A stretch of 64,000 nt of DNA from Nemertoderma westbladi (lineage: Eukaryota > Animalia > Xenacoelomorpha). The notes under the pieces were generated by a model. It saw only the letters and a list, made by a program, of their open reading frames with translations, was not told the DNA's origin and did no database searches. A program made the translations under genes and the position numbers. The stretch's first letter is position 1; each line of letters begins with the position of its first letter. The stretch spans positions 31,896-95,895 of the forward strand of contig JAUCBJ010009046.1 in NCBI GenBank assembly GCA_032718475.1, given 5' to 3'. This document shows, in pieces, positions 1,484-46,275 of the stretch.

Positions 1484-2447
1484 CACTCACCTTTGATGCA
1501 TCAAAGACCCACGGACCCATAGTGATACACTCACCTTTGATGCATCATAGACACACGGACCCATAGTGTTACACTCACCTTTGATGCATCATAGACCCAC
1601 GGGACCCATAGTGATACACTCACCTTTGATGCATCATAGACCCACGGACCCATAGTGTTACACTCACCTTTAATGCATCATAGACCCACGGACCCATAGT
1701 GTTACACTCACCTTTGATGCATCATAGACCCCATGGACCCATAGTGATACACTTACCTTTGATGCATCATAGACCCACGGACCCATAGAGATACACTCAC
1801 CTTTGATGCATCATAGACCCACGGGACCCATAGTGATACACTCACCTTTGATGCATCAAAGACCCACGGACCCATAGTGATACCACCTTTGATGCATCAT
1901 AGACTCCATGGACCCATAGTGATACACTCACCTTTGATGCATCATAGACCCACGGACCCATAGAGATACACTCACCTTTGATGCATCATAGACCCACGGG
2001 ACCCATAGTGATACACTCACCTTTGATGCATCAAAGACCCACGGACCCATAGTGATACCACCTTTGATGCATCATAGACCCCATGGACCCATAGTGATAC
2101 ACTCACCTTTGATGCATCATAGACCCACTGACCCATAGTGATACACTCACCTTTGATGCATCATAGACCCACGGTCCCATAGAGATACACTCACCTTTGA
2201 TGCATCATAGACCCACGGGACCCATAGTGATACACTCACCTTTGATGCATCAAAGACCCACGGACCCATAGTGATACCACGTTTGATGCATCATAGACTC
2301 CATGGACCCATAGTGATACCACCTTTGATGCATCATAGACTCCATGGACCCATAGTGATACACTCACCTTTGATGCATCATAGACCCACTGACCCATAGT
2401 GATACACTCACCTTTGATGCATCATAGACCCACGGACCCATAGTGAT
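1484..2447 (-). repeat. 44-bp tandem array (~22 copies) made of the last 36 nt of the Cys-loop exon plus the first 8 nt of its intron (donor AAG|GTGAGTGT)
   Basis: Minus-strand unit ATCACTATGGGTCCGTGGGTCTATGATGCATCAAAG|GTGAGTGT; the rightmost copy is the real exon end (2412-2447). Confidence 0.95.
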
Positions 2448-3285: not shown

Positions 3286-6200
3286 GTAAGTCGTCCAATA
3301 ACTTACAACATCTGGTACCATCCGTATGTCATACAATCACTTACAACATCTAGTACCATCCGTATGTCATACAATCACTTACAACATCTAGTACCATCCG
3401 TAAGTCATACAATCACTTACAACATCTAGTACCATCCGTAAGTCATACAATCACTTACAACATCTAGTACCATCCGTAAGTCATATACAATCACTTACAA
3501 CATCTAGTACCATCCGTAAGTCATACAATCACTTACAACATCTAGTACCATCCGTAAGTCATATACAATCACTTACAACATCTAGTACCATCCGTAAGTC
3601 ATACAATCACTTACAACATCTAGTACCATCCGTAAGTCATATACAATCACTTACAACATCTAGTACCATCCGTAAGTCATATACAATCACTTACAACATC
3701 TAGTACCATCCGTAAGTCTATACAATCACTTACAACATCTAGTACCATCCGTAAGTCATATACAATCACTTACAACATCTAGTACCATCCGTAAGTCTAT
3801 ACAATCACTTACAACATCTAGTACCATCCGTAAGTCATATACAATCACTTACAACATCTAGTACCATCCGTAAGTCTATACAATCACTTACAACATCTAG
3901 TACCATCCGTAAGTCATATACAATCACTTACAACATCTAGTACCATCCGTATGTCATACAATCACTTACAACATCTAGTACCATCCGTAAGTCATATACA
4001 ATCACTTACAACATCTAGTACCATCCGTATGTCATACAATCACTTACAACATCTAGTACCATCCGTAAGTCATATACAATCACTTACAACATCTAGTACC
4101 ATCCGTATGTCATACAATCACTTACAACATCTAGTACCATCCGTAAGTCATATACAATCACTTACAACATCTAGTACCATCCGTATGTCATACAATCACT
4201 TACAACATCTAGTACCATCCGTAAGTCATACACAATCACTTACAACATCTAGTACCATCCGTATGTCATACAATCACTTACAACATCTAGTACCATCCGT
4301 ATGTCATACAATCACTTACAACATCTAGTACCATCCGTAAGTCATATACAATCACTTACAACATCTAGTACCATCCGTAAGTCACACAATCACTTACAAC
4401 ATCTAGTACCATCCGTAAGTCATACAATCACTTACAACATCTAGTACCATCCGTATGTCATACAATCACTTACAACATCTAGTACCATCCGTAAGTCATA
4501 CACAATCACTTACAACATCTAGTACCATCCGTATGTCATACAATCACTTACAACATCTAGTACCATCCGTATGTCATACAATCACTTACAACATCTAGTA
4601 CCATCCGTAAGTCATATACAATCACTTACAACATCTAGTACCATCCGTAAGTCACACAATCACTTACAACATCTAGTACCATCCGTAAGTCATACAATCA
4701 CTTACAACATCTAGTACCATCCGTAAGTCATACAATCACTTACAACATCTAGTACCATCCGTAAGTCATATACAATCACTTACAACATCTAGTACCATCC
4801 GTAAGTCATATACAATCACTTACAACATCTAGTACCATCCGTAAGTCATATACAATCACTTACAACATCTAGTACCATCCGTAAGTCATATACAATCACT
4901 TACAACATCTAGTACCATCCGTAAGTCATACAATCACTTACAACATCTAGTACCATCCGTAAGTCATATACAATCACTTACAACATCTAGTACCATCCGT
5001 AAGTCATACAATCACTTACAACATCTAGTACCATCCGTAAGTCATACAATCACTTACAACATCTAGTACCATCCGTAAGTCATATACAATCACTTACAAC
5101 ATCTAGTACCATCCGTAAGTCATATACAATCACTTACAACATCTAGTACCATCCGTAAGTCATATACAATCACTTACAACATCTAGTACCATCCGTAAGT
5201 CATATACAATCACTTACAACATCTAGTACCATCCGTAAGTCATACAATCACTTACAACATCTAGTACCATCCGTAAGTCATACAATCACTTACAACATCT
5301 AGTACCATCCGTAAGTCATACAATCACTTACAACATCTAGTACCATCCGTAAGTCATATACAATCACTTACAACATCTAGTACCATCCGTAAGTCATACA
5401 ATCACTTACAACATCTAGTACCATCCGTAAGTCATACAATCACTTACAACATCTAGTACCATCCGTAAGTCATACAATCACTTACAACATCTAGTACCAT
5501 CCGTAAGTCATACAATCACTTACAACATCTAGTACCATCCGTAAGTCATACAATCACTTACAACATCTAGTACCATCCGTAAGTCATACAATCACTTACA
5601 ACATCTAGTACCATCCGTAAGTCATACAATCACTTACAACATCTAGTACCATCCGTAAGTCATACAATCACTTACAACATCTAGTACCATCCGTAAGTCA
5701 TACAATCACTTACAACATCTAGTACCATCCGTAAGTCATACAATCACTTACAACATCTAGTACCATCCGTAAGTCATACAATCACTTACAACATCTAGTA
5801 CCATCCGTAAGTCATACAATCACTTACAACATCTAGTACCATCCGTAAGTCATACAATCACTTACAACATCTAGTACCATCCGTAAGTCATACAATCACT
5901 TACAACATCTAGTACCATCCGTATGTCATACAATCACTTACAACATCTAGTACCATCCGTAAGTCATATACAATCACTTACAACATCTAGTACCATCCGT
6001 AAGTCATATACAATCACTTACAACATCTAGTACCATCCGTAAGTCATATACAATCACTTACAACATCTAGTACCATCCGTAAGTCATATACAATCACTTA
6101 CAACATCTAGTACCATCCGTAAGTCATATACAATCACTTACAACATCTAGTACCATCCGTAAGTCATATACAATCACTTACAACATCTAGTACCATCCGT

Positions 6201-9200
6201 AAGTCATATACAATCACTTACAACATCTAGTACCATCCGTATGTCATACAATCACTTACAACATCTAGTACCATCCGTATGTCATACAATCACTTACAAC
6301 ATCTAGTACCATCCGTATGTCATACAATCACTTACAACATCTAGTACCATCCGTATGTCATATACAATCACTTACAACATCTAGTACCATCCGTAAGTCG
6401 TCATACAATCACTTACAACATCTAGTACCATCCGTAAGTCATATACAATCACTTACAACATCTAGTACCATCCGTATGTCATACAATCACTTACAACATC
6501 TAGTACCATCCGTAAGTCATATACAATCACTTACAACATCTAGTACCATCCGTAAGTCATATACAATCACTTACAACATCTAGTACCATCCGTAAGTCAT
6601 ATACAATCACTTACAACATCTAGTACCATCCGTAAGTCATACAATCACTTACAACATCTAGTACCATCCGTATGTCATACAATCACTTACAACATCTAGT
6701 ACCATCCGTATGTCATATACAATCACTTACAACATCTAGTACCATCCGTAAGTCATATACAATCACTTACAACATCTAGTACCATCCGTATGTCATACAA
6801 TCACTTACAACATCTAGTACCATCCGTATGTCATATACAATCACTTACAACATCTAGTACCATCCGTATGTCATACAATCACTTACAACATCTAGTACCA
6901 TCCGTATGTCATATACAATCACTTACAACATCTAGTACCATCCGTAAGTCATATACAATCACTTACAACATCTAGTACCATCCGTAAGTCATATACAATC
7001 ACTTACAACATCTAGTACCATCCGTAAGTCATACAATCACTTACAACATCTAGTACCATCCGTAAGTCATACAATCACTTACAACATCTAGTACCATCCG
7101 TATGTCATACAATCACTTACAACATCTAGTACCATCCGTAAGTCATATACAATCACTTACAACATCTAGTACCATCCGTATGTCATATACAATCACTTAC
7201 AACATCTAGTACCATCCGTATGTCATACAATCACTTACAACATCTAGTACCATCCGTAAGTCATACAATCACTTACAACATCTAGTACCATCCGTAAGTC
7301 ATATACAATCACTTACAACATCTAGTACCATCCGTAAGTCATATACAATCACTTACAACATCTAGTACCATCCGTAAGTCATACAATCACTTACAACATC
7401 TAGTACCATCCGTAAGTCATATACAATCACTTACAACATCTAGTACCATCCGTAAGTCATACAATCACTTACAACATCTAGTACCATCCGTAAGTCATAC
7501 AATCACTTACAACATCTAGTACCATCCGTAAGTCATACAATCACTTACAACATCTAGTACCATCCGTAAGTCATATACAATCACTTACAACATCTAGTAC
7601 CATCCGTAAGTCATACAATCACTTACAACATCTAGTACCATCCGTATGTCATACAATCACTTACAACATCTAGTACCATCCGTAAGTCATACAATCACTT
7701 ACAACATCTAGTACCATCCGTAAGTCATATACAATCACTTACAACATCTAGTACCATCCGTAAGTCATATACAATCACTTACAACATCTAGTACCATCCG
7801 TAAGTCATATACAATCACTTACAACATCTAGTACCATCCGTAAGTCATACAATCACTTACAACATCTAGTACCATCCGTAAGTCATATACAATCACTTAC
7901 AACATCTAGTACCATCCGTAAGTCATACAATCACTTACAACATCTAGTACCATCCGTATGTCATACAATCACTTACAACATCTAGTACCATCCGTAAGTC
8001 ATACAATCACTTACAACATCTAGTACCATCCGTAAGTCATATACAATCACTTACAACATCTAGTACCATCCGTAAGTCATATACAATCACTTACAACATC
8101 TAGTACCATCCGTAAGTCATATACAATCACTTACAACATCTAGTACCATCCGTAAGTCATACAATCACTTACAACATCTAGTACCATCCGTAAGTCATAT
8201 ACAATCACTTACAACATCTAGTACCATCCGTAAGTCATACAATCACTTACAACATCTAGTACCATCCGTATGTCATACAATCACTTACAACATCTAGTAC
8301 CATCCGTAAGTCATACAATCACTTACAACATCTAGTACCATCCGTAAGTCATATACAATCACTTACAACATCTAGTACCATCCGTAAGTCATACAATCAC
8401 TTACAACATCTAGTACCATCCGTATGTCATACAATCACTTACAACATCTAGTACCATCCGTATGTCATACAATCACTTACAACATCTAGTACCATCCGTA
8501 AGTCATACAATCACTTACAACATCTAGTACCATCCGTAAGTCATATACAATCACTTACAACATCTAGTACCATCCGTAAGTCATATACAATCACTTACAA
8601 CATCTAGTACCATCCGTAAGTCATATACAATCACTTACAACATCTAGTACCATCCGTAAGTCATACAATCACTTACAACATCTAGTACCATCCGTAAGTC
8701 ATATACAATCACTTACAACATCTAGTACCATCCGTAAGTCATACAATCACTTACAACATCTAGTACCATCCGTATGTCATACAATCACTTACAACATCTA
8801 GTACCATCCGTAAGTCATACAATCACTTACAACATCTAGTACCATCCGTATGTCATACAATCACTTACAACATCTAGTACCATCCGTATGTCATATACAA
8901 TCACTTACAACATCTAGTACCATCCGTAAGTCATACAATCACTTACAACATCTAGTACCATCCGTAAGTCATACAATCACTTACAACATCTAGTACCATC
9001 CGTATGTCATACAATCACTTACAACATCTAGTACCATCCGTATGTCATATACAATCACTTACAACATCTAGTACCATCCGTATGTCATACAATCACTTAC
9101 AACATCTAGTACCATCCGTATGTCATACAATCACTTACAACATCTAGTACCATCCGTAAGTCATATACAATCACTTACAACATCTAGTACCATCCGTATG

Positions 9201-12200
9201 TCATACAATCACTTACAACATCTAGTACCATCCGTAAGTCATACAATCACTTACAACATCTAGTACCATCCGTATGTCATACAATCACTTACAACATCTA
9301 GTACCATCCGTAAGTCATACAATCACTTACAACATCTAGTACCATCCGTAAGTCATATACAATCACTTACAACATCTAGTACCATCCGTAAGTCATATAC
9401 AATCACTTACAACATCTAGTACCATCCGTAAGTCATATACAATCACTTACAACATCTAGTACCATCCGTATGTCATACAATCACTTACAACATCTAGTAC
9501 CATCCGTAAGTCATATACAATCACTTACAACATCTAGTACCATCCGTATGTCATACAATCACTTACAACATCTAGTACCATCCGTAAGTCATACAATCAC
9601 TTACAACATCTAGTACCATCCGTAAGTCATACAATCACTTACAACATCTAGTACCATCCGTAAGTCATATACAATCACTTACAACATCTAGTACCATCCG
9701 TATGTCATACAATCACTTACAACATCTAGTACCATCCGTATGTCATACAATCACTTACAACATCTAGTACCATCCGTAAGTCATATACAATCACTTACAA
9801 CATCTAGTACCATCCGTATGTCATACAATCACTTACAACATCTAGTACCATCCGTATGTCATACAATCACTTACAACATCTAGTACCATCCGTATGTCAT
9901 ACAATCACTTACAACATCTAGTACCATCCGTAAGTCATATACAATCACTTACAACATCTAGTACCATCCGTAAGTCATATACAATCACTTACAACATCTA
10001 GTACCATCCGTATGTCATACAATCACTTACAACATCTAGTACCATCCGTATGTCATACAATCACTTACAACATCTAGTACCATCCGTAAGTCATATACAA
10101 TCACTTACAACATCTAGTACCATCCGTAAGTCATACAATCACTTACAACATCTAGTACCATCCGTAAGTCATACAATCACTTACAACATCTAGTACCATC
10201 CGTAAGTCATATACAATCACTTACAACATCTAGTACCATCCGTAAGTCATACAATCACTTACAACATCTAGTACCATCCGTAAGTCATATACAATCACTT
10301 ACAACATCTAGTACCATCCGTAAGTCATACAATCACTTACAACATCTAGTACCATCCGTAAGTCATACAATCACTTACAACATCTAGTACCATCCGTATG
10401 TCATACAATCACTTACAACATCTAGTACCATCCGTATGTCATACAATCACTTACAACATCTAGTACCATCCGTATGTCATACAATCACTTACAACATCTA
10501 GTACCATCCGTATGTCATACAATCACTTACAACATCTAGTACCATCCGTAAGTCATATACAATCACTTACAACATCTAGTACCATCCGTATGTCATACAA
10601 TCACTTACAACATCTAGTACCATCCGTATGTCATACAATCACTTACAACATCTAGTACCATCCGTAAGTCATACAATCACTTACAACATCTAGTACCATC
10701 CGTAAGTCATATACAATCACTTACAACATCTAGTACCATCCGTAAGTCATATACAATCACTTACAACATCTAGTACCATCCGTATGTCATACAATCACTT
10801 ACAACATCTAGTACCATCCGTATGTCATACAATCACTTACAACATCTAGTACCATCCGTATGTCATACAATCACTTACAACATCTAGTACCATCCGTATG
10901 TCATATACAATCACTTACAACATCTAGTACCATCCGTAAGTCGGTCATACAATCACTTACAACATCTAGTACCATCCGTAAGTCATATACAATCACTTAC
11001 AACATCTAGTACCATCCGTATGTCATACAATCACTTACAACATCTAGTACCATCCGTAAGTCATATACAATCACTTACAACATCTAGTACCATCCGTAAG
11101 TCATATACAATCACTTACAACATCTAGTACCATCCGTAAGTCATATACAATCACTTACAACATCTAGTACCATCCGTAAGTCATACAATCACTTACAACA
11201 TCTAGTACCATCCGTATGTCATACAATCACTTACAACATCTAGTACCATCCGTATGTCATATACAATCACTTACAACATCTAGTACCATCCGTAAGTCAT
11301 ATACAATCACTTACAACATCTAGTACCATCCGTATGTCATACAATCACTTACAACATCTAGTACCATCCGTATGTCATATACAATCACTTACAACATCTA
11401 GTACCATCCGTATGTCATACAATCACTTACAACATCTAGTACCATCCGTATGTCATATACAATCACTTACAACATCTAGTACCATCCGTAAGTCATATAC
11501 AATCACTTACAACATCTAGTACCATCCGTAAGTCATATACAATCACTTACAACATCTAGTACCATCCGTAAGTCATACAATCACTTACAACATCTAGTAC
11601 CATCCGTATGTCATACAATCACTTACAACATCTAGTACCATCCGTATGTCATACAATCACTTACAACATCTAGTACCATCCGTAAGTCATATACAATCAC
11701 TTACAACATCTAGTACCATCCGTATGTCATATACAATCACTTACAACATCTAGTACCATCCGTATGTCATACAATCACTTACAACATCTAGTACCATCCG
11801 TAAGTCATACAATCACTTACAACATCTAGTACCATCCGTAAGTCATATACAATCACTTACAACATCTAGTACCATCCGTAAGTCATATACAATCACTTAC
11901 AACATCTAGTACCATCCGTAAGTCATACAATCACTTACAACATCTAGTACCATCCGTAAGTCATACAATCACTTACAACATCTAGTACCATCCGTAAGTC
12001 ATACAATCACTTACAACATCTAGTACCATCCGTAAGTCATACAATCACTTACAACATCTAGTACCATCCGTATGTCATACAATCACTTACAACATCTAGT
12101 ACCATCCGTATGTCATATACAATCACTTACAACATCTAGTACCATCCGTATGTCATACAATCACTTACAACATCTAGTACCATCCGTATGTCATACAATC

Positions 12201-18200: not shown

Positions 18201-21200
18201 TACAATCACTTACAACATCTAGTACCATCCGTATGTCATACAATCACTTACAACATCTAGTACCATCCGTATGTCATACAATCACTTACAACATCTAGTA
18301 CCATCCGTATGTCATATACAATCACTTACAACATCTAGTACCATCCGTATGTCATACAATCACTTACAACATCTAGTACCATCCGTATGTCATACAATCA
18401 CTTACAACATCTAGTACCATCCGTAAGTCATATACAATCACTTACAACATCTAGTACCATCCGTAAGTCATACAATCACTTACAACATCTAGTACCATCC
18501 GTATGTCATACAATCACTTACAACATCTAGTACCATCCGTAAGTCATACAATCACTTACAACATCTAGTACCATCCGTATGTCATACAATCACTTACAAC
18601 ATCTAGTACCATCCGTATGTCATACAATCACTTACAACATCTAGTACCATCCGTATGTCATATACAATCACTTACAACATCTAGTACCATCCGTATGTCA
18701 TACAATCACTTACAACATCTAGTACCATCCGTATGTCATACAATCACTTACAACATCTAGTACCATCCGTAAGTCATATACAATCACTTACAACATCTAG
18801 TACCATCCGTAAGTCATACAATCACTTACAACATCTAGTACCATCCGTAAGTCATATACAATCACTTACAACATCTAGTACCATCCGTAAGTCATACAAT
18901 CACTTACAACATCTAGTACCATCCGTAAGTCATACAATCACTTACAACATCTAGTACCATCCGTAAGTCATATACAATCACTTACAACATCTAGTACCAT
19001 CCGTAAGTCATACAATCACTTACAACATCTAGTACCATCCGTATGTCATACAATCACTTACAACATCTAGTACCATCCGTATGTCATACAATCACTTACA
19101 ACATCTAGTACCATCCGTATGTCATACAATCACTTACAACATCTAGTACCATCCGTAAGTCATACAATCACTTACAACATCTAGTACCATCCGTAAGTCA
19201 TACAATCACTTACAACATCTAGTACCATCCGTATGTCATACAATCACTTACAACATCTAGTACCATCCGTATGTCATACAATCACTTACAACATCTAGTA
19301 CCATCCGTAAGTCATATACAATCACTTACAACATCTAGTACCATCCGTAAGTCATACAATCACTTACAACATCTAGTACCATCCGTAAGTCATACAATCA
19401 CTTACAACATCTAGTACCATCCGTAAGTCATACAATCACTTACAACATCTAGTACCATCCGTAAGTCATATACAATCACTTACAACATCTAGTACCATCC
19501 GTATGTCATACACAATCACTTACAACATCTAGTACCATCCGTATGTCATACAATCACTTACAACATCTAGTACCATCCGTAAGTCATACAATCACTTACA
19601 ACATCTAGTACCATCCGTAAGTCATATACAATCACTTACAACATCTAGTACCATCCGTAAGTCATATACAATCACTTACAACATCTAGTACCATCCGTAA
19701 GTCATATACAATCACTTACAACATCTAGTACCATCCGTAAGTCATATACAATCACTTACAACATCTAGTACCATCCGTAAGTCATATACAATCACTTACA
19801 ACATCTAGTACCATCCGTAAGTCATATACAATCACTTACAACATCTAGTACCATCCGTAAGTCATATACAATCACTTACAACATCTAGTACCATCCGTAA
19901 GTCATATACAATCACTTACAACATCTAGTACCATCCGTAAGTCATATACAATCACTTACAACATCTAGTACCATCCGTAAGTCACACAATCACTTACAAC
20001 ATCTAGTACCATCCGTAAGTCATACAATCACTTACAACATCTAGTACCATCCGTAAGTCATATACAATCACTTACAACATCTAGTACCATCCGTAAGTCA
20101 TACAATCACTTACAACATCTAGTACCATCCGTAAGTCATACAATCACTTACAACATCTAGTACCATCCGTATGTCATACAATCACTTACAACATCTAGTA
20201 CCATCCGTATGTCATACAATCACTTACAACATCTAGTACCATCCGTAAGTCATATACAATCACTTACAACATCTAGTACCATCCGTAAGTCATATACAAT
20301 CACTTACAACATCTAGTACCATCCGTAAGTCATACAATCACTTACAACATCTAGTACCATCCGTAAGTCATATACAATCACTTACAACATCTAGTACCAT
20401 CCGTATGTCACACAATCACTTACAACATCTAGTACCATCCGTAAGTCATATACAATCACTTACAACATCTAGTACCATCCGTAAGTCATATACAATCACT
20501 TACAACATCTAGTACCATCCGTATGTCACACAATCACTTACAACATCTAGTACCATCCGTAAGTCATATACAATCACTTACAACATCTAGTACCATCCGT
20601 ATGTCACACAATCACTTACAACATCTAGTACCATCCGTATGTCACACAATCACTTACAACATCTAGTACCATCCGTATGTCACACAATCACTTACAACAT
20701 CTAGTACCATCCGTATGTCATACAATCACTTACAACATCTAGTACCATCCGTATGTCACACAATCACTTACAACATCTAGTACCATCCGTAAGTCATATA
20801 CAATCACTTACAACATCTAGTACCATCCGTATGTCACACAATCACTTACAACATCTAGTACCATCCGTATGTCATACAATCACTTACAACATCTAGTACC
20901 ATCCGTAAGTCATACAATCACTTACAACATCTAGTACCATCCGTATGTCATACAATCACTTACAACATCTAGTACCATCCGTATGTCATACAATCACTTA
21001 CAACATCTAGTACCATCCGTAAGTCATACAATCACTTACAACATCTAGTACCATCCGTATGTCATACAATCACTNNNNNNNNNNNNNNNNNNNNNNNNNN
21101 NNNNNNNNNNNNNNNNNNNNNNNNNNNNNNNNNNNNNNNNNNNNNNNNNNNNNNNNNNNNNNNNNNNNNNNNNNCAATCACTTACAACATCTAGTACCAT

Positions 21201-32477: not shown

Positions 32478-32594
32478 TCAGAGACATGTCAATGACAACA
32501 TTGACGGGATTGTTCTGGTCAACAACCGGTCTGATTCTGGGATTGTATCTCCCGCCCTGAAACAATTTCTCGTAGAGACGACCCAAATCTTTAT
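32461..32594 (-). CDS. nAChR-type subunit coding exon 2
   Basis: tttaatag acceptor and gtaagt donor. Translates (N)KDLGRLYEKLFQGGRYNPRIRPVVDQNNPVNVVIDMSLRMVLDV, the typical L..Y....RPV.....V.V..SL..LDV segment; phase-0 intron before DEKNQ as in other nAChR genes. Confidence 0.93.
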
Positions 32595-32635
32595 CTATTA
32601 AATATAATAATCAAGGCAGGGCTAGATTGTAAGAT

Positions 32636-35100
32636 TGGGCATAACTTTATACAGTATAGTGTAATCTTGGACTTACTGTACTGGGTATAACTTTATACAG
32701 TATAGTGTAATCTTGGACTTACTGTACTGGGCATAACTTTATACAGTATAGTGTAATCTTGGACTTACTGTACTGGGTATAACTTTATACAGTATAGTGT
32801 AATCTTGAACTTACTGTACTGGGCATAACTTTATACAGTATAGTGTAATCTTGAACTTACTGTACTGGGCATAACTTTATACAGTATAGTGTAATCTTGG
32901 ACTTACTGTACTGGGCATAACTTTATACAGTATAGTGTAATCTTGGACTTACTGTACTGGGCATAACTTTATACAGTATAGTGTAATCTTGGACTTACTG
33001 TACTGGGCATAACTTTATACAGTATAGTGTAATCTTGAACTTACTGTACTGGGCATAACTTTATACAGTATATTGTAATCTTGAACTTACTGTACTGTAC
33101 TGGGTATAACTTTATACAGTATAGTGTAATCTTGGACTTACTTTACTGGGCATAACTTTATACAGTATAGTGTAATCTTGAACTTACTGTACTGTACTGG
33201 GCATAACTTTATACAGTATAGTGTAATCTTGGACTTACTGTACTGGGCATAACTTTATACAGTATAGTGTAATCTTGAACTTACTGTACTGGGCATAACT
33301 TTATACAGTATAGTGTAATCTTGGACTTACTGTACTGGGCATAACTTTATACAGTATAGTGTAATCTTGGACTTACTGTACTGGGTATAACTTTATACAG
33401 TATAGTGTAATCTTGGACTTACTGTATTGGGCATAACTTTATACAGTATAGTGTAATCTTGGACTTACTGTACTGGGCATAACTTTATACAGTATAGTGT
33501 AATCTTGGACTTACTGTACTGGGCATAACTTTATACAGTATAGTGTAATCTTGGACTTACTTTACTGGGCATAACTTTATACAGTATAGTGTAATCTTGA
33601 ACTTACTGTACTGGGCATAACTTTATACAGTATAGTGTAATCTTGGACATACTGTATTGGGCATAACTTTATACAGTATAGTGTAATCTTGGACTTACTG
33701 TACTGGGCATAACTTTATACAGTATAGTGTAATCTTGGACTTACTGTACTGGGCATAACTTTATACAGTATAGTGTAATCTTGGACTTACTTTACTGGGC
33801 ATAACTTTATACAGTATAGTGTAATCTTGAACTTACTGTACTGGGCATAACTTTATACAGTATAGTGTAATCTTGAACTTACTGTACTGTACTGGGCATA
33901 ACTTTATACAGTATAGTGTAATCTTGGACTTACTGTACTGGGCATAACTTTATACAGTATAGTGTAATCTTGGACTTACTGTACTGGGCATAACTTTATA
34001 CAGTATTGTGTAATCTTGGACTTACTGTACTGGGCATAACTTTATACAGTATAGTGTAATCTTGGACTTACTTTACTGGGCATAACTTTATACAGTAGTG
34101 TAATCTTGGACTTACTGTACTGGGCATAACTTTATACAGTAACAGTATAGTGTAATCTTGGACTTACTGTACTGGGCATAACTTTATACAGTATAGTGTA
34201 ATCTTGAACTTACTGTACTGGGCATAACTTTATACAGTATAGTGTAATCTTGAACTTACTGTACTGTACTGGGCATAACTTTATACAGTATAGTGTAATC
34301 TTGGACTTACTGTACTGGGCATATCTTTATACAGTATAGTGTAATCTTGGACTTACTGTACTGGGCATAACTTTATACAGTATAGTGTAATCTTGGACTT
34401 ACTGTACTGGGCATAACTTTATACAGTATAGTGTAATCTTGAACTTACTGTACTGGGCATAACTTTATACAGTATAGTGTAATCTTGAACTTACTGTACT
34501 GTACTGGGCATAACTTTATACAGTATAGTGTAATCTTGGACTTACTGTACTGGGCATAACTTTATACAGTATAGTGTAATCTTGGACTTACTGTACTGGG
34601 CATAAGTTTATACAGTATAGTGTAATCTTGGACTTACTGTACTGGGCATAACTTTATACAGTATAGTGTAATCTTGGACTTACTGTACTGGGCATAACTT
34701 TATACAGTATAGTGTAATCTTGAACTTACTGTACTGGGCATAACTTTATACAGTATAGTGTAATCTTGGACTTACTTTACTGGGCATAACTTTATACAGT
34801 ATAGTGTAATCTTGAACTTACTGTACTGGGCATAACTTTATACAGTATAGTGTAATCTTGAACTTACTGTACTGTACTGGGCATAACTTTATACAGTATA
34901 GTGTAATCTTGGACTTACTGTACTGGACATAACTTTATACAGTATAGTGTAATCTTGGACTTACTGTACTGGGCATAACTTTATACAGTATAGTGTAATC
35001 TTGGACTTACTTTACTGGGCATAACTTTATACAGTATAATGCAATCTTGAACTTACTGTACTGGGTATAACTTTATACATTATAGTGTAATATTGGACTT
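32636..35100. repeat. 46-bp minisatellite (CTGGGCATAACTTTATACAGTATAGTGTAATCTTGGACTTACTGTA), ~53 copies, near the 3' end of intron 1
   Basis: Direct tandem repeat; each unit reads ACA|GTAAGT on the gene's sense (minus) strand. Confidence 0.95.
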
Positions 35101-35580
35101 ATAAGATTACGTTGTGGAACAAATTTAATTTCGACGGTACAGTGTAGTTACGATTATATATCAGAGACAATAATAAGTGTTACGTAAAGCTGCTATACTC
35201 TGCCTTTGAAAAAGTAATTTATTCTAAAAACTCAAAAGATTTAGGTGTATTATTAAATAATGGAATCATTCACAAGATGAATGAATTAGCTTCACTTGTT
35301 ATGATAACATCTGATATTCAGGGATATATACTTGCTTTCTACTAATTAATCTCATTCTCCAAGATGCGTATTGCACTGCAAGAAATGACAAAATACTGTA
35401 ATAATTTATGCTGTCCCATACAAAGGAACCCCAACTCGTTCTAAGCCATCGATGCATAGATATAAGCGCTATAAAACACTTAATAAAGATAAATTCAAAA
35501 AAAGAAAAAATCTTCATATATAAAATTCCAATAAAAGGTCGACCGAGAAGTGAAATCCTGGTAATCTTCACATGTTGGGC

Positions 35581-35871
35581 GGGTTATTACCAGCTATTAA
35601 GAGCTATCCAATTTTTGCAAAGGCTATCCAACAGTTACCCTATTTTTGCACAGGCTATCCAACAGTTACCCTATTTTTGCACAGGCTATCCAACAGTTAC
35701 CCTATTTTTGCACAGGCTATCCAACAGTTACCCTATTTTTGCACAGGCTATCCAACAGTTACCCTATTTTTGCACAGGCTATCCAACAGTTACCCTATTT
35801 TTGCACAGGCTATCCAACAGTTACCCTATTTTTGCACAGGCTATCCAACAGTTACCCTATTTTTGCACAGG
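35581..35871 (+). repeat. 31-bp satellite array (GCTATCCAACAGTTACCCTATTTTTGCACAG), plus orientation, with conserved head sequence
   Basis: Tandem repeat; same family as the inverted arrays at 36879-37870, 40677-41368 and 45758-46251. Confidence 0.93.
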
Positions 35872-36810: not shown

Positions 36811-36878
36811 TATTAAATGTAAAAATACAATCCCAGACAGCCTTGAGACCATTTTTGACCTTTTTCAATCCATTTTAG

Positions 36879-37870
36879 GTAACTGTTGGATAGCTGTGTA
36901 AAAATAGGATAACTGTTGGATAGCCTGTGCAAAAATAGGATAACTGTTGGATAGCTGTGCCAAAATAGGATAACTGTTGGATAGCCTGTGCAAAAATAGG
37001 ATAACTGTTGGATAGCTGTGCAAAAATTGGATAACTGTTGGATAGCCTGTGCAAAAATTGGATAACTGTTAGATAGCCTGTGCAAAAATTGGATAACTGT
37101 TGGATAGCCTGTGCAAAAATTGGATAACTGTTGGATAGCCTGTGCAAAAATAGGATAACTGTTGGATAGCTGTGCAAAAATTGGATAACTGTTGGATAGC
37201 CTATGCAAAAATTGGATAACTGTTGGATAGCCTGTGCAAAAATAGGATAACTGTTGGATAGCTGTGCAAAAATTGGATAACTGTTGGATAGCCTGTGCAA
37301 AAATAGGATAACTGTTGGATAGCCTGTGCAAAAATTGGATAACTGTTGGATAGCCTGTGCAAAAATTGGATAACTGTTGGATAGCCTGTGCAAAAATTGG
37401 ATAACTGTTGGATAGCCTGTGCAAAAATTGGATAACTGTTGGATAGCCTGTGCAAAAATTGGATAACTGTTGGATAGCCTGTGCAAAAATAGGATAACTG
37501 TTGGATAGCTGTGCAAAAATTGGATAACTGTTGGATAGCCTGTGCAAAAATTGGATAACTGTTGGATAGCCTGTGCAAAAATTAGATAACTGTTGGATAG
37601 CCTGTGCAAATATAGGATAACTGTTAGCTGTGCCAAAATTGGATAACTGTTTGATAGCCTGTGCAAAAATAGGATAACTGTTGGATTGCCTGTGCAAAAA
37701 TTGGATAACTGTTGGATAGCCTGTGCAAAAATTGGATAACTGTTGGATAGCCTGTGCAAAAATTGGATAACTGTTGGATAGCCTGTGCAAAAATAGGATA
37801 ACTGGTGGATAGCTGTGCAAAAATTGGATAACTGTTGGATAGCCTGTGCAAAAATTGGATAACTGCTGGA
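36879..37870 (-). repeat. 31-bp satellite array, minus orientation (~32 copies)
   Basis: Tandem GGATAACTGTTGGATAGCCTGTGCAAAAATW. Confidence 0.95.
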
Positions 37871-39850
37871 CGGTCAGGGCCCTAAACCGATTAGGTTCTC
37901 TGTTCGCAGAACACCGAACACTATTCCGGCCACGGAACTAGTCCAGCAGAATGCCTTTATAGAATCCTGGAATTTGTGGGACGAGAGGATCTCAGCAACT
38001 AAGCGAAAACGAACAATAGGATGTTCCTAGACCCCCCCCCCCCCAAAATTTATCCAGAAGACTTTTCGCCATACATAATGTGTTAAAAAGGTCTACGGTT
38101 CTCCAGCTAGGGCCAATTTGAGTCAAAAAGTCCGCTTCCCTAGCAACCACGTTGCTATGGAGATAAGTCCAGAACCGCTAATGCTACGGACTTGGGACCG
38201 GCGCCAATCGATAGGCAGCATATGGGTTTACCTTCAAGAGATTTTTTTTGGAGCGATCAGATCATAATCTTGACCATGATCAGCAAAGATCAGTTTTGAT
38301 CAGCAATCGGACACTCAAGGCTTGCTCTAATCGAAAAACTTAACATTACAAAAAGATTCAGCGACCCCACATTAGTCATGATTCCCGTTAAAAGATTTAA
38401 AAAAAAGTGAATTCTTCCCGGTCAAAACGCAAGATCATGATCGCGCAAAGATCGGACTTCGTAAAATCGTAACTAAGCATTTTGGATATAAACAATTACT
38501 GTAGGAAACGTTCAGAACACCGCCCTGAGTCGATTAAAAAAAAATTGGCCCGATCGGACAACCGGTTCTCGAGATCTGATACCTGATCATTAAAGATGAT
38601 ATTTTTCGGTTTTTTCAAATTTTCTCGAAAACTTTGTTTGAGACCCCCGATTTTTTTTTTACGAATCGACTTCTATGATGAAGGGGCAACTTTTGAGCAT
38701 TTCGAAATTTTCAAAAAGCGATTTGATCAGGCCGCGATCAGAAAAGATCGTGTTTTCGGTTTTATTTTGAATACCAAGTCCTGGGAGTTCACCGTTTGGA
38801 AAAACTTAACATCACAAAAAGATTCCTCGCCCTCGAATTATGGGGGGTAGCCAAAATTTGGGCATAAAAAAGTTCAAGTCTAGTGGGTCAAAACTCAAGA
38901 TCATGATCGCGAAAAGATCAGTATATTTAAAATCGAATCTAAGCATTTTTCTAATAAACATTCATTGTAAGAAATGTGCAATGGTCTATTCTGAGTTGAT
39001 TAAAAAAAAAATTGGCTCGATCGGGCAACCAGTTCTCGAGATCAGCTTCCTGATCATAAAAGATCGTGTTTTTCAGTTTTTCCCGATTTTCTCTAAAACT
39101 TTGTTTGAGACCCCCGATTTTTTTTTCACTAATCGACTTCTATTATGAAGGGGCAACTTTTGAGCATTTCAAAATTTTCAAAAAGCGATTTGATCACGCC
39201 ATGATCAGGAAAGATCATGTTTTCGGTTTTATTTCGAAGACCAAGTCCTGTAAGTTCACCGTTTGAAAAAACTTAACATTACAAAAAGATTCCTCACCCT
39301 CGAATTAGGGGGGGTAGCCAAAATTTGACCATAAAAAGTTCAATTCTAGGGGGTCAAAAGATCATGATCGCGAAATGATCAGTTTTTTCGAAATTACTTC
39401 TGAGCATTTTGGGGCAAAACTTTCAAACTAAAAAACATTCACTGGAGTGTTCTAAGTAGATTAAAAAAAAATTCGACTCAATAGGCCTACCGGTACCGGA
39501 GATATTGTCGTCCAAAGTCTGCTTCCGGTAATTCGAAAATATTTCGAAAACCCTTGATCGAATTTTTTCCTTGAAAATATGTGAATGTACAATTAGTGGA
39601 CCCGCATCTAACGATATATCACAATCCATATTTCGGATGATAGGTACCGGTGAAATCAGACTTTACCAAAAAAATTCAAATTTTAGCTACTCATGTCTGA
39701 CTATCTCGAAAACTATAATAGGTATGGAAATACTTTCACTGCAAGAAATGTTCGCCTATCCAATGCGCTTCTAACTCTGTGCTCGGATTTTGCATAGTGT
39801 CAAAACCTACAACTTAACCCCCCCAGCGGAGGGAACTGAGTGACCGGAGC
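37871..39850. mobile_element. Probable transposon-derived segment with ~2.5 diverged internal ~466-bp direct repeats rich in GATC motifs
   Basis: AAAAACTTAACAT recurs at 38334, 38800 and 39267; ORFs 38596 and 39066 are paralogous translations of the repeat. Outer boundaries are approximate. Confidence 0.5.
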
Positions 39851-40676: not shown

Positions 40677-41368
40677 CTGGATAGCCTGTGCAAAAATTGG
40701 ATAACTGTTGGATAGCCTGTGCAAAAATTGGATAACTGTTGGATAGCCTGTGCAAAAATAGGATAACTGTTGGATAGCCTGTGCAAAAATTGGATAACTG
40801 TTGGATAGCTGTGCAAAAATAGGATAACTGTTGGATAGCCTGTGCAAAAATTGGATAACTGTTGGATAGCCTGTGCAAAAATTGGATAACTGTTGGATAG
40901 CCTGTGCAAAAATAGGATAACTGTTGGATAGCCTGTGCAAAAATAGGATAACTGGTGGATAGCCTGTGCAAAAATAGGATAACTGGTGGTTGGATAGACT
41001 GTGCAAATTGGATAACTGTTGGATAGCCTGTGCAAAAATAGGATAACTGGTGGATAGCCTGTGCAAAAATAGGATAACTGGTGGTTGGATAGACTGCACA
41101 AATTGGATAACTGTTGGATAGCCTGTGCAAAAATTAGATAACTGTTGGATAGCCTGTGCAAATATAGGATAACTGTTAGCTGTGCCAAAATTGGATAACT
41201 GTTAGATAGCCTGTGCAAAAATAGGATAACTGTTGGATTGCCTGTGCAAAAATTGGATAACTGTTGGATAGCCTGTGCAAAAATTGGACAACTGTTGTAT
41301 AGCCTGTGCAAAAATTGGATAACTGTTGGATAGCCTGTGCAAAAATTGGATAACTGTTGGATAGCCTG
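40677..41368 (-). repeat. 31-bp satellite array, left part, interrupted by the LTR retrotransposon
   Basis: Tandem repeat ending at the GCCTG target-site duplication. Confidence 0.95.
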
Positions 41369-41543
41369 TATAAGATATAAATGTGTCAGTTATTCAAAAT
41401 GTATTAATCCTATAATCATCTAGCACTGTCAGACTACAAACCGCACAATACTGCAATGACCAGAATACCAACCACCACCACAGTTACACTCAGCAGTCAG
41501 CAGCCTATAATAATCCATCCATCTATCTCACACATATCTTATA
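41369..41543 (-). repeat. 3' LTR (175 bp), termini TATAAGATAT…ATATCTTATA
   Basis: Identical to 45583-45757 by eye. Confidence 0.95.
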
Positions 41544-41551
41544 TTCCCCCC
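41544..41551 (-). other. Polypurine tract GGGGGGAA (a second copy lies at ~41584-41591)
   Basis: Directly abuts the 3' LTR on the element's sense strand. Confidence 0.8.
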
Positions 41552-41657
41552 AGTTTGTAAAATAAACTATCTGTGTTCTCATATTCCCCCCAGTTTATAG
41601 TAAACGTATATTTAACACCATGTTCAAGTAAATAGCTCCAATCGATATTTAGCTAAT

Positions 41658-44600
41658 CTAAATCCCATATCTCTCCGGTGGTTTCGAATTTCTCCCCGCT
41701 CGAGTTACATATCCTAACTCCGGAACGACCTCAATATCATTTGCATTACTTCCATCATCTATATTGTCGTTGTCATCATCCTCATTGTAATTCACTGTAG
41801 TGTCATCATCATTTACAGTTTCATCATCTGAACTGTCCGTGTCCATCTCATCTTCAATGTCAATATTCCTGTCAATGTTCCCATTGTATGTCACGTCCAG
41901 TTGGTTACCGACGTGAATCTTTCTAACATCCTGTAGATGATGTCTGATACCCTTTACTACAACCGACCATTCATCTGGAATTTCCTCTACTTCCATTGGT
42001 CCTTTCCACCTTTTGTAGCAACGCCACTTCTGTTCAGGCTTGACGTAAATCAAATCTCCAATTTTATATGGGTTGTCTATTACCTCTCTGTCTTCTAGCA
42101 GCTTTGTTATGCCAGGCAACTTTTCCACTCGTTCACCCATGACTTTCTGAATTGGTGTCTGGTTATCTTTTACTGATGTTCTGTTGTACCAGAATGTAAC
42201 TTGAACTGGATCTTTCTTAGATCTCGACGCCCACGCTTTTATAGTTCGATGCATTCTTTCGACGGGATTTCCCCTAGGTCTGTATGCGCACGAAGGCTTC
42301 AGTTTCACCTCCCATTTATTTAAGAAACTTTTAAACTCATTGCTGCGGAACGCAGGACCATTATCGGGTATAATTTCTTCAGGGGGTCCCCACTCTATAA
42401 ATATTCGCTGTAGAATTTTAACGGCCTGTGCGCTTGTTTTATTAGGCACTTGATTCCAAATAGTAAAATTAGAGCTACAATCAATAACTGTTAGATAACT
42501 GTGAGTCCCATACTCAGAAAAATCAGTAGATAATCTTTGCCAACTCCTATCAGTTTTACAGCTGCCTGGTTTCAGTTTCACTGGTACAGGGTCGATGCTC
42601 TTACATTCTTCACACTTTCTACAAACCTCTTTAATTGCTTCTTTACAATGGTCTGTTACACTGCCTAGATTCCTGTCTGCTTTACATAGATTCTTTAGTC
42701 TATCAGATCCCACATGTACCACTTCGTGTAATTCCTTCACTCTTTCCTCAATGTCCGCATAATCTGCGGTTCCATTGGTCTCTGTAACAGTTACTGCAGC
42801 TACTTCGACTTCTGGTTTTTTTAGCCATTTTTTTGGTATACGAGTTAAACAGTCAGCTCGATTCTGCTCTGATGGAACTAGATGCAAAGTTGTTTTTAAC
42901 TGAAATTCGTCCACAGTTTTCTTGAGAAGTTCCAATCTTCGTCTTATTAACATTTTAGACATTCCCTTAGTGCGAATGCGGTGTTCATCTTTCAGCATTG
43001 CATTTACCCATCCATATACCGGTGCCGAGTCAGTATATAATTGTATTTCTGTTAATTCCCACTGTATTGCCATATTTACCCCTTCAATTAATGCGCTAAG
43101 CTCGGCTGAGTTTATGTGTTCTGGGTCATCGTTTTTACGTAACCATGATCCATCCTCAGCTGTCTGTCCCCCGATTCTCACCATCGCCCCAATGGCCAAG
43201 TTACTAGCGTCAGCCCAAACTTCGCCACGTTTCGTATCACTTATAGGCCACGAACCACCCACTGGATCTGCTCGTTGCACTCGGTTAACCACCTCAACTA
43301 ATTTATCTCTAGTTCCCTTGTCTATTACTGAATCCATTGGAACATTTGCTGCCTGGCGTTGCAGCCAACTCAATGACACTCGCAACCATCCCTCGATCAA
43401 ATAGTTTCCTCGTAATTGTCCTACCACTGATAGCAGTTTTCTATGAGTTAATGGGTTCTCGATCTTTTCTGGGTCTGGAATGTCACTATCTCGTTTCCAC
43501 TTCCCCCCTTCCACAGCGACTCCGAGGACTCTGGCCCCACCTTTAATTTCTATTGCTTCCTTGGTTTCGAGTCCGAACTTTTTAAGATGTTGCCTTACGT
43601 CATCTGCTGTTACACCTGTTTGTAAATCTGCATATATGTCATCCCTAAAACTGTCTGTCGATTCCTTAATTCGATCATTCTGTCCCAGTACTTTTTCTAC
43701 AATAGTATCCAATATTTTGGGTGCCGGGCCCAACCCAAACCCAAGTCTAGTCATGCAGTACCTTTTTCCTTTGTAACTGACTGTTTGGTATGCCTGTAGT
43801 GCCGGTGCTATTCTTATCTGCATGTACGCCCACTTTAAGTCGATTATTGCTGTATTCTCGCCCATTCTTATCCAGTGCCTTAACTTTTCGTTACTTGCTG
43901 CTGCCTCCACCCCTGGTTGCTTTATTAAGTATTCGTTTAATTCTCTAAAATCCATAATGGGGCGCACTCGATCTTTGCGGGGTTCATTTTTATACATCAG
44001 AGGTATCAGTGCCATATAATCACCCTCAAATTCTTGCAACCATCCCTTCTCTATCCACTCTCCTACTCCTTTCTCATACTTGCTACGTAGTTCTGTTGGA
44101 ATATGATATTCCCGTACTGTATTGTTTAGTCTACCTGGTGGAGAGCCAGCTTCGAATTTGTACTCCACTTGCCAATTAGTACCATCGAAAACTGCACAAA
44201 AATCGTCTTTATCTATTCTTAGGATTGGTTCTGTAGTCGTTTTGGCTACTGCTGATACTGACCATTGTCCCCCTGACCCGACACTTACTTCCATTTTACC
44301 GTCGTCTGTTCCTATAAATGAAATGCCGTTGCTTTTCTTTATTAAGTCCCACCCATATATCATATTTAATTCTCCTACTATATGATCAACAACCAAGAAT
44401 TCCCAAACAAACTCCGGCATCCTGTCAATCTGTAACACAGTACTAACCTTTCCTACCAACTGCGTAGCTGTAGACCCGTCTAACATAGTTATGTTTGATT
44501 TATTACCTGGTTCCTCAAATGTTCCATTAATTCTCGCTGCGAACTTCCGCGATAATATACTCCTGCTACACCCAGAATCGACCAATGCTTCCACAAATTT

Positions 44601-44696
44601 CCCTCCACAATTCACATTTTTCGTCGGAAGATCACCGACTTGTCCTCCGGGGAGACGACCGCTGGCACACACGACGCCTCCCCCTATTCGTTTCCC
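41658..44696 (-). CDS. pol: Pol polyprotein (protease-RT-RNase H-integrase), expressed by -1 frameshift from gag
   Basis: LVDSGCS protease; DLKWAY…RLGFGL…FRDD RT; WADAS/ELSAL/YTDS/ADCLTR RNase H; H-x3-H…C-x2-C zinc finger and D..D(NGPAF)..E(RMHRTIK) integrase. Uninterrupted ORF (41658-44726). Confidence 0.95.
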   Translation of the reverse strand, partial: GKRIGGGVVCASGRLPGGQVGDLPTKNVNCGGKFVEALVDSGCSRSILSRKFAARINGTFEEPGNKSNITMLDGSTATQLVGKVSTVLQIDRMPEFVWEFLVVDHIVGELNMIYGWDLIKKSNGISFIGTDDGKMEVSVGSGGQWSVSAVAKTTTEPILRIDKDDFCAVFDGTNWQVEYKFEAGSPPGRLNNTVREYHIPTELRSKYEKGVGEWIEKGWLQEFEGDYMALIPLMYKNEPRKDRVRPIMDFRELNEYLIKQPGVEAAASNEKLRHWIRMGENTAIIDLKWAYMQIRIAPALQAYQTVSYKGKRYCMTRLGFGLGPAPKILDTIVEKVLGQNDRIKESTDSFRDDIYADLQTGVTADDVRQHLKKFGLETKEAIEIKGGARVLGVAVEGGKWKRDSDIPDPEKIENPLTHRKLLSVVGQLRGNYLIEGWLRVSLSWLQRQAANVPMDSVIDKGTRDKLVEVVNRVQRADPVGGSWPISDTKRGEVWADASNLAIGAMVRIGGQTAEDGSWLRKNDDPEHINSAELSALIEGVNMAIQWELTEIQLYTDSAPVYGWVNAMLKDEHRIRTKGMSKMLIRRRLELLKKTVDEFQLKTTLHLVPSEQNRADCLTRIPKKWLKKPEVEVAAVTVTETNGTADYADIEERVKELHEVVHVGSDRLKNLCKADRNLGSVTDHCKEAIKEVCRKCEECKSIDPVPVKLKPGSCKTDRSWQRLSTDFSEYGTHSYLTVIDCSSNFTIWNQVPNKTSAQAVKILQRIFIEWGPPEEIIPDNGPAFRSNEFKSFLNKWEVKLKPSCAYRPRGNPVERMHRTIKAWASRSKKDPVQVTFWYNRTSVKDNQTPIQKVMGERVEKLPGITKLLEDREVIDNPYKIGDLIYVKPEQKWRCYKRWKGPMEVEEIPDEWSVVVKGIRHHLQDVRKIHVGNQLDVTYNGNIDRNIDIEDEMDTDSSDDETVNDDDTTVNYNEDDDNDNIDDGSNANDIEVVPELGYVTRAGRNSKPPERYGI
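44649..44696 (-). promoter_or_regulatory. -1 programmed ribosomal frameshift signal: slippery G GGA AAC plus downstream GC-rich stem-loop
   Basis: Heptamer in the gag frame (CCG GGA AAC GAA TAG). After a 6-nt spacer, GGGGAGGCG (44683-44675) pairs with CGTCTCCCC (44657-44649). pol lies in the -1 frame. Confidence 0.85.
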
Positions 44697-45559
44697 GGCT
44701 TCGTCGTCGGGATGAATGCCACGCACCCTCTCGCTAAATGGTCAGCACCCCCGCATCTAAAGCAACCCGTGTTCGGTTTAACAGTCCCTGTCGCAGTTCC
44801 GCTCTGGTTTCTATTCCCTAAATTTCCTACGTCGCTGTAGCACTCACGCGCAAAGTGGCCGGGTTTACCGCAACGGAAACATCCTGACCCTCTACCCTGA
44901 TCTCCTCCCCGTGACTCCATACCACTGTCCCGTCGCCAGTTCCCTTTATAATCTCGATTCGAATCCGCAGTTGGACGATAATATCCCTTGTTTCCCTGCC
45001 TATCCCCGTATCTCGCCGCCGCCCCTACCAGCTGAGCTTCGCTTCGCTCCGACTCAGACAATAACCGCCTTGCCTGTGCTAACAGTTTACTCAAATCCGT
45101 CTCACCTGCTAACGCCTTCGTCTCGTTTTGTATTTCATCCGGTAGTCCACTCACGAATTGAACCGCCAAGATCTGCTGCGCGCACCTAGATTGAACATCG
45201 CCCCCAGTGACCAACCCTAATAACCTCTTCAGTTCTGCCAGAAACGTATCTGGCGATTCCTTTTCCTTCAGTCGACGCTGTTTGTATTGCTCGAACGCCG
45301 TATATTCGTTGATTGCGAACGCTGTTATCAATGATCGTTTCAGAATATCATAGTCCGCCTTTTCTGCATCCGATAGCTGACTAATTACGTTGTACGCTGC
45401 GCCCTCCATTGACAGTCGCAAGTAGGTTGCCCGCGATTCCTCTTTCAATCCGGCCTCCGCTTTCATCACGTCGTAAGTGTCATCGAACCTCATTAGCCAA
45501 GCAGATGGATCACCCGTACCATTGTACTTTTTAACATAATCCGAAAGTTTCGGAGCCAT
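44684..45559 (-). CDS. gag: Gag with two CCHC zinc knuckles
   Basis: CFRCGKPGHFAREC and CFRCGGADHLARGC; capsid-like N-terminus (YNGTGDPSAWL…QFVSGLP); ATG at 45559. Confidence 0.93.
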   Translation of the reverse strand: MAPKLSDYVKKYNGTGDPSAWLMRFDDTYDVMKAEAGLKEESRATYLRLSMEGAAYNVISQLSDAEKADYDILKRSLITAFAINEYTAFEQYKQRRLKEKESPDTFLAELKRLLGLVTGGDVQSRCAQQILAVQFVSGLPDEIQNETKALAGETDLSKLLAQARRLLSESERSEAQLVGAAARYGDRQGNKGYYRPTADSNRDYKGNWRRDSGMESRGGDQGRGSGCFRCGKPGHFARECYSDVGNLGNRNQSGTATGTVKPNTGCFRCGGADHLARGCVAFIPTTKPGNE

Positions 45560-45570
45560 CACTGCTGCAA

Positions 45571-45582
45571 GCCCGGTTAGCT
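45571..45582 (-). other. Candidate non-canonical primer-binding site AGCTAACCGGGC
   Basis: Occupies the PBS position directly after the 5' LTR and has no TGG; its complement GCCCGGTTAGCT resembles nt 1-12 of tRNA-Lys. Confidence 0.55.
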
Positions 45583-45757
45583 TATAAGATATAAATGTGT
45601 CAGTTATTCAAAATGTATTAATCCTATAATCATCTAGCACTGTCAGACTACAAACCGCACAATACTGCAATGACCAGAATACCAACCACCACCACAGTTA
45701 CACTCAGCAGTCAGCAGCCTATAATAATCCATCCATCTATCTCACACATATCTTATA
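45583..45757 (-). repeat. 5' LTR (175 bp)
   Basis: Identical to 41369-41543. Confidence 0.95.
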
Positions 45758-46275
45758 GCCTGTGCAAAAATTGGATAACTGTTGGATAGCCTGTGCAAAA
45801 ATAGGATAACTGGTGGATAGCTGTGCAAAAATTGGATAACTGTTGGATAGCCTGTGCAAAAATTGGATAACTGCTGGATAGCCTGTGCAAAAATTGGATA
45901 ACTGTTGGATAGCCTGTGCAAAAATTGGATAACTGTTGGATAGCCTGTGCAAAAATAGGATAACTGTTGGATAGCATGTGCAAAAATTGGATAACTGTTG
46001 GATAGCCTGTGCAAAAATTGGATAACTGTTGGATAGCCTGTGCAAAAATAGGATAACTGTTGGATAGCCTGTGCAAAAATAGGATAACTGGTGGATAGCC
46101 TGTGCAAAAATAGGATAACTGGTGGTTGGATAGACTGTGCAAATTGGATAACTGTTGGATAGCCTGTGCAAAAATAGGATAACTGGTGGATAGCCTGTGC
46201 AAAAATAGGATAACTAGTGGTTGGATAGACTGCACAAATTGGATAACTGTTAATACAGTAGCAGGTAATAACCGG
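45758..46275 (-). repeat. 31-bp satellite array, right part, plus conserved head sequence
   Basis: The array resumes in register after the LTR; 46236-46274 resembles the reverse complement of 35581-35615. Confidence 0.92.

Follow-up and report, generated by a model that had tools for sequence, protein, structure and literature searches.

The window, i.e. the whole stretch of 64,000 nucleotides of eukaryotic DNA that was analysed, carries on its minus strand a nicotinic-receptor-like gene that, judging from its sequence, probably encodes a nicotinic-type Cys-loop receptor subunit. Three exons, E2, EA and EB, were identified, all of them open stretches that match consecutive parts of the Pfam profile Neur_chan_LBD. 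Exon E2 (32594-32461) matches profile positions 3-40 (24.9 bits, E 1.6e-5, just below the 26-bit cutoff), exon EA (3195-3044), which contains the DEKNQ...WRPD motif, matches positions 41-91 (36.4 bits), and the Cys-loop exon EB (2595-2412) matches positions 109-152 (45.4 bits). EA has matches to AChBP, alpha-7 and 5-HT3A, residues 111-155 of the human alpha-3 nAChR align with EB (E 6.6e-11), and the solved structures closest to the EA and EB peptides are nAChR subunits. The Cys-loop of EB has the form C-x13-C and reads CKINVQYYPFDYQHC.

Each of the three exons ends at a recognisable donor. EB ends in phase 0 at AAG/GTGAGT (the slash marks the exon-intron boundary), EA ends at CAG/GTAGTA, which is located outside every array, and E2 ends at GTT/GTAAGT, the final 17 nt of the exon being the beginning of a 38/40-mer repeat unit. 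The four-helix membrane domain (Neur_chan_memb) was matched by none of the 150 open frames scanned and falls outside the window. The next downstream exon was not found in positions 1-1483, where none of the six minus-strand open frames matches any family. Upstream of the 46-mer array described below, Pfam searches of the flanking open frames within the window gave no convincing candidate for an exon 1 or a fourth donor.

Two arrays that span splice donors

The EB donor is included in a tandem array (1484-2447) for which TRF reports a period of 44, 22.0 copies, 92% matches and a score of 1609, with alternative periods of 89 and 175. When parsed along the minus strand from 2447 to 1484, the array resolves into 22 head-to-tail units of 42-45 nt each, 964 bp in all, with unique sequence on either side. 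Unit 1 (2447-2404) comprises the last 36 nt of EB (2447-2412), which encode ITMGPWVYDASK, and the first 8 nt of the intron (2411-2404), which read GTGAGTGT. This unit is identical to the TRF consensus unit and holds the authentic donor, the G of which is at 2411. The other 21 copies (2403-1484, minus strand, from unit parsing and TRF) are intronic and provide the decoy donors. The exon-intron junction thus lies inside the first unit, copies extend intron-ward only and the splice signal is reiterated, i.e. the 44-mer array is a boundary-spanning minisatellite of a known type.

A consensus donor is present in 17 of the 21 intronic copies, as AAG/GTGAGT or, in one copy, as AAG/GTAAGT. In the remaining four (units 3, 4, 9 and 13) the same 3-nt deletion has left GTGGTA in place of the consensus. 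Several of the intronic copies have lengths of 42 or 45 nt, and such frame-breaking indels indicate that the copies are without coding constraint. Splicing at donor 2 would add 44 nt and shift the frame by +2. The first in-frame stop past the authentic donor is a TGA at 2366-2364 (minus strand), where the frame, open as far as 2367, meets the donor of unit 2, which the stop overlaps; donors 3-22 are all behind this stop. Every choice of a decoy leads to a frameshift or to a premature stop. The units were also inspected by eye for a recursive splice site (ratchet point); they read ...GATGCATCAAAG/GTGAGT and have no pyrimidine tract before the AG.

The second donor-spanning array (32477-3286, minus strand, from TRF and unit parsing) consists of about 747 units of 38 or 40 nt. 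It begins 17 nt inside E2, reaches to 90 nt before the EA acceptor and fills the intron between these exons. GTT/GTAAGT is kept in 745 of the 746 units parsed for it, and nearly all positions of the unit are invariant, so that the donor is not singled out. As many as 700 of the 747 parsed units belong to four types. Long strings (about 45 units) are found again at distant places in the array, and the most diverged type is that of the terminal unit. Reading on past the E2 donor, one reaches a TGA after 15 nt. An assembly gap of 100 N (21075-21174) lies inside the array, which means that the intron length of about 29 kb is an estimate. From one unit plus the 90-nt tail we infer that the E2-EA intron was probably about 113 nt long before the expansion. 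Between 12900 and 21000, a series of about 45 unit types occurs again in nearly unchanged form about 6 kb away (rows starting at 20636 and 16770), owing either to a large duplication within the array or to a repeat in the assembly close to the gap.

The 44-mer and the 38/40-mer show no significant similarity to each other: their local alignment score is 11 as compared to 8.1 +/- 1.6 in shuffled sequences, 41 of 500 shuffles reaching 11, and we consider the two units unrelated. This agrees with an earlier note on the same DNA, which had also described about 22 copies of a 44-bp unit with 36 exon nt, a second donor that shifts the frame and later donors that pass an in-frame TGA, all of which is borne out by the parsing given above. 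The note had further placed the beginning of the array exactly at the exon/intron boundary. Here a correction is needed: unit 1 does span the junction, but the additional copies begin at 2403, after the first 8 nt of the intron.

Neighbouring arrays and genes

Tandem arrays cover 46,646 of the 64,000 bases of the window (73%). TRF gives 25 rows for the window; of the 15 array rows that were counted, all but two are clear of any identified exon. Upstream of E2 there is a 46-mer array of 53 copies (32636-35101, minus strand, TRF), the unit of which holds GTAAGT; the flanking open frames gave no Pfam match and no exon at either end, i.e. this array is not exon-anchored. Two further TRF arrays, a 33-mer (1-255) and a 27-mer (522-694), share the intron with the 44-mer array, have no donor motif and can be used as comparators. 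Long minisatellites of 31-137 copies are present at 47258-52035, 53229-54834, 56598-58274 and 61202-63095 (34-, 33-, 54- and 27-mers), and an open-frame scan found no recognisable exon beside any of these four. It may be that the locus recombines frequently and is prone to form arrays. In the mouse pseudoautosomal region minisatellite-filled introns have been ascribed to frequent recombination, according to the available part of PMC13050634, and by analogy the receptor locus may be of the same sort.

An LTR-type retrotransposon occupies 40678-46251 on the minus strand. Its pol open frame (41661-44741) includes protease, reverse transcriptase, RNase H and integrase, and its gag open frame (44687-45607) includes a zinc knuckle. 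The two flanks of the element (41408-41557 and 45622-45786) contain the same stretch with the same peptide and are adjoined by 31-mer minisatellites (40678-41369 and 45755-46251); the terminal repeats of the element seem to carry minisatellite arrays. The same 31-mer forms two more arrays, mutually opposite in orientation, between the receptor gene and the element (35611-35871 and 36876-37870). A 467-bp unit is present in two copies with 85% identity at 38420-39383. On the plus strand, an uninterrupted open frame of 316 codons (59434-60381) matches RNase H2 subunit B (PF09468, PF17745), the best of its six hits being 36% identical, and it may be either an intronless gene or a retrocopy. The protein clusters nearest to this frame come most commonly from Chordata, which is not decisive as to the taxon.

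Growth of the arrays and choice of the donor

The internal structure of the 44-mer array bears on the way it has grown. Identical units recur in the same order (u5=u10=u14, u6=u11=u15=u20, u2=u8 and u3=u13), and on average two units differ least if they lie 4 or 5 units apart (mean differences of 3.7 and 3.5, respectively, as compared to 4.1-4.9 at other lags). Taken together with the alternative period of 175, the recurrence of identical units in blocks of 4-5 indicates that block duplication drove the growth of the array, at least partly. Block growth is the usual outcome of unequal exchange and not of repeated events at a donor site. The recurring blocks also show concerted evolution within the 44-mer cluster, the edge effect being weak since only 2 sites distinguish the last unit from unit 1. 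The same signs of turnover are seen in the 38/40-mer array, i.e. a mosaic of few unit types, long strings repeated at a distance and a diverged terminal unit.

We consider it likely that the 44-mer array goes back to one 44-bp duplication followed by unequal exchange, and that its 21 intronic copies are silent decoys, as predicted from the sequence. The founding step was likely a single 44-bp tandem duplication across the EB donor, and the subsequent growth would be ordinary minisatellite turnover, i.e. slippage and unequal crossing-over in steps of one or several units. The exon copy presumably came first, as it is conserved coding sequence and specifies a conserved stretch of nAChRs (ITMGPWVYDASK, as compared to TMKFGSWSYDKAK in human alpha-3). 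As to splicing, we predict that only the first donor is used, because it alone has a whole exon with an acceptor upstream of it; the gene would then conform with human F7, where the "first site wins" in the 5'-to-3' direction. Human 6-16 and CBS, in which two pseudo-sites serve in addition to the authentic donor (PMC1557585), speak against this prediction. The earlier note had offered, as one of two explanations, that such duplications are tolerated since the upstream donor always wins, and this idea agrees with the published cases of the same anatomy and may hold for the present gene as well.

The presence of two arrays in one gene can be explained in similar terms: minisatellites saturate the locus, the E2-EA intron was probably short originally, at about 113 nt, and duplications on the donor side are presumably tolerated. 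If founding events are placed uniformly on the collapsed window of 18,336 nt, the chance of at least two donor-covering arrays is 0.012 with 3 donors and 0.020 with 4 donors, but this estimate is post hoc, as the window was picked for its arrays, and it ignores the short ancestral intron as well as selection against exonic duplications. Pure chance is a poor explanation if one disregards how short the ancestral intron was and that the window was chosen post hoc. Duplications of 40 nt that fall at random in an intron of about 113 nt would frequently include a boundary, and one that touches such an intron would cover the donor in about one quarter of the cases, ~40/(113+40). The folding of the units may also play a part. 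Folds of two units as single-stranded DNA were compared with shuffled sequences, and both donor-spanning units fold better than these, giving z = -2.35 for the 44-mer (5 of 200 shuffles as good), z = -4.90 for the 40-mer (0 of 200) and values of -2.57 to +0.38 for eight other arrays of the window. The 44-mer contains a perfect 10-nt palindrome, and in the hairpin of the 40-mer the donor GTAAGT can pair with ACTTAC 11 nt downstream. It is suggestive that palindromes favour slippage at donor-spanning units, but with n=2 and one comparator equally low this proves nothing.

An alternative, raised in part by the earlier note, is that a process linked to 5' splice sites (polymerase pausing, R-loops or U1-bound nascent RNA) nucleates duplications, so that donors would be mutational hotspots and a general route of intron expansion. 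The note had counted two of four donors as having seeded arrays. Two donors are indeed inside arrays, but the fourth was not found and three were verified, i.e. the proportion is two of three, as opposed to none of the three acceptors of the gene. This excess and the post hoc chance estimate of 0.012-0.020 speak for a donor-linked process. However, the excess is also what selection would produce: decoy acceptors placed upstream would be met first and be harmful, whereas decoy donors placed downstream would lose and be harmless. Selection alone predicts the excess equally well, and for this reason a donor-versus-acceptor test cannot separate mutation bias from selection. The short ancestral E2-EA intron makes overlap with a boundary likely by geometry. 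In addition, 73% of the window is array, most arrays are away from identified exons (two of them in the very intron of the 44-mer array), growth took place in multi-unit blocks and not by unit-wise events at the donor, and the published mirages span 3' boundaries too, as described in the available part of PMC3087553. The donor-linked process finds no support in these data, and we regard it as unlikely.

A second alternative is that the decoys are functional, i.e. that arrays of strong U1 sites tune expression, be it by unproductive splicing and nonsense-mediated decay, by U1 aiding the upstream exon or by shielding a very long intron from premature polyadenylation. The consensus donor is kept in 17/21 copies of the 44-mer and 745/746 of the 38/40-mer, and every decoy choice leads to a frameshift or a premature stop, just as unproductive splicing needs. 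On the other hand, homogenisation of a young array keeps a motif without selection, the 38/40-mer is invariant at nearly every position and not in the donor alone, and the sole recurrent lesion of the 44-mer (the 3-nt deletion of four units) destroys the donor consensus. The pseudo-sites of F7, moreover, are functional and yet silent, as far as the available text of PMC1557585 describes them. We consider functional decoys quite unlikely. In a broader form, one may propose that the arrays are not passive, i.e. that they were either seeded co-transcriptionally at donors or are U1-site arrays kept for transcribing and splicing very long, repeat-filled introns. This seems improbable to us. If it were so, introns of animal genomes rich in minisatellites would really expand by "donor amplification", and the present pair would be the clearest example of it in nature: one intron with 22 copies, and another, once probably about 113 nt long, in which about 747 copies extend over at least 29 kb.

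The arrays were also looked for in sequencing reads, i.e. in three runs from two samples, both of which may be the source of the assembly itself, so that the confirmation is not fully independent. In contigs derived from the reads of the three runs, a single-copy contig covers the stretch from 3300 to 2418, where it ends inside unit 1. Past this point there are short contigs of higher depth, and a unit is joined to the distal flank by a contig. A break inside the 44-mer array is expected with the 31-letter words used. On copy-number variation between the samples, the material is limited to short-word contigs of two samples, all of which break inside the array. In run X1, contig depths are 20.8-80 for the 44-mer, 3,700-12,143 for the 40-mer and 573.5 for the 46-mer, as compared to 21 for single-copy sequence; these values agree with the assembly in order of magnitude only, depth not being a copy count. 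Contig cover is absent at 32484-32626 (exon E2) in all three runs, and at 2230-2337 in run X3. It is highly unlikely that the arrays are assembly artefacts or that the gene is a dead paralogue that tolerates anything: the 29-kb array does contain a 100-N gap, the rest of the gene is outside the window (the six minus-strand frames of 1-1483 being without family matches) and none of the six runs listed is an RNA run, but contigs of three runs connect unique sequence with unit 1 and a unit with the distal flank, the unit variants occur in ordered blocks, unlike assembler stutter, and the three exons are open and match profile parts 3-40, 41-91 and 109-152 in succession.

Comparison with known boundary-spanning minisatellites

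The 44-mer array belongs to a small, known class of natural 5' splice-site "competition experiments", to which it is a clean invertebrate-style addition. Human and lancelet genes have furnished earlier instances of the repeat type; what is unusual here is that one gene has two independent arrays, and that the sister array is so large. With about 747 units it far exceeds the published cases, which have 5-26 copies in the parts of the literature available to us. The gene could serve to test whether the most upstream donor also prevails over 21 and about 746 decoys of strong consensus. Furthermore, it illustrates that a short intron can reach tens of kilobases by minisatellite expansion alone, although a donor-specific mechanism is not thereby shown. 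No systematic survey of arrays at splice donors was recognised in the literature by title or abstract, which is not a proof of absence.

It is instructive to compare the locus with the human cases first. In F7, 6-16, CBS, LMNB2 and PDGF the first monomer of a minisatellite spans an exon-intron boundary, according to the available part of PMC1557585. In intron 7 of F7 (IVS7) the most upstream of 5-9 identical donors alone is used, even though the pseudo-sites are functional (Borensztajn et al. 2006, PMC1557585). The authentic donor is the only one used in F7, LMNB2 and PDGF, while 6-16 and CBS use the first two pseudo-sites besides it (PMC1557585, same part). The 37-bp VNTR of F7 intron 7 resembles the 44-mer array in that the first unit spans the boundary, identical pseudo-donors follow the authentic donor, and the unit has a few tens of base pairs. 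There are differences as well, as far as the F7 array is described in that source. Firstly, it has 5-9 copies and each unit includes 4 exon nt, the corresponding numbers here being 22 and 36. Secondly, the F7 donor is UGG/gugggu, whereas the donor of EB is the strong consensus AAG/GTGAGT. Thirdly, the choice of donor in F7 was assayed with 50 constructs, whereas here it is predicted from sequence. The other human genes are alike in that a boundary-spanning minisatellite reiterates the donor 10-25 times, i.e. in 6-16 (IFI6) intron 2, CBS intron 13, and LMNB2 and PDGF intron 4 (PMC1557585, in the part available). The use of the first two pseudo-sites in 6-16 and CBS sets these genes apart from the present one, in which donor 2 would shift the frame and later donors would pass a stop.

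The second group of relatives are the so-called mirages of lancelet. Those of the Adh3 gene were reportedly described by Canestro et al. in 2002, a work known to us through the papers that cite it. Mirages are recorded for Adh3 and the globins BflGb6 and BflGb9 (PMC3087553) and for TnC and PGBD5 (PMC3902484), and in the available parts of these two papers splicing is said to be undisturbed, with no aberrant mRNA. They occur at both 5' and 3' boundaries (PMC3087553, PMC3902484). Like the arrays described here, the mirages are minisatellite duplications at exon-intron boundaries, belong to a minisatellite-rich genome and affect several loci, as far as these sources go. They likewise show concerted evolution within the cluster with the edge units excluded, and in kind the same is found here. 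In contrast, the units of the globin mirages are 150-160 bp long, the copies number 3-6 and acceptor-side cases are included. Finally, the Rogers model, as cited in the available part of PMC3087553, explains intron gain by a tandem duplication across AG/GT, and it has in common with the present case that the duplication contains the donor signal; the difference is that in the model a new intron is made, whereas here an existing intron has been lengthened.
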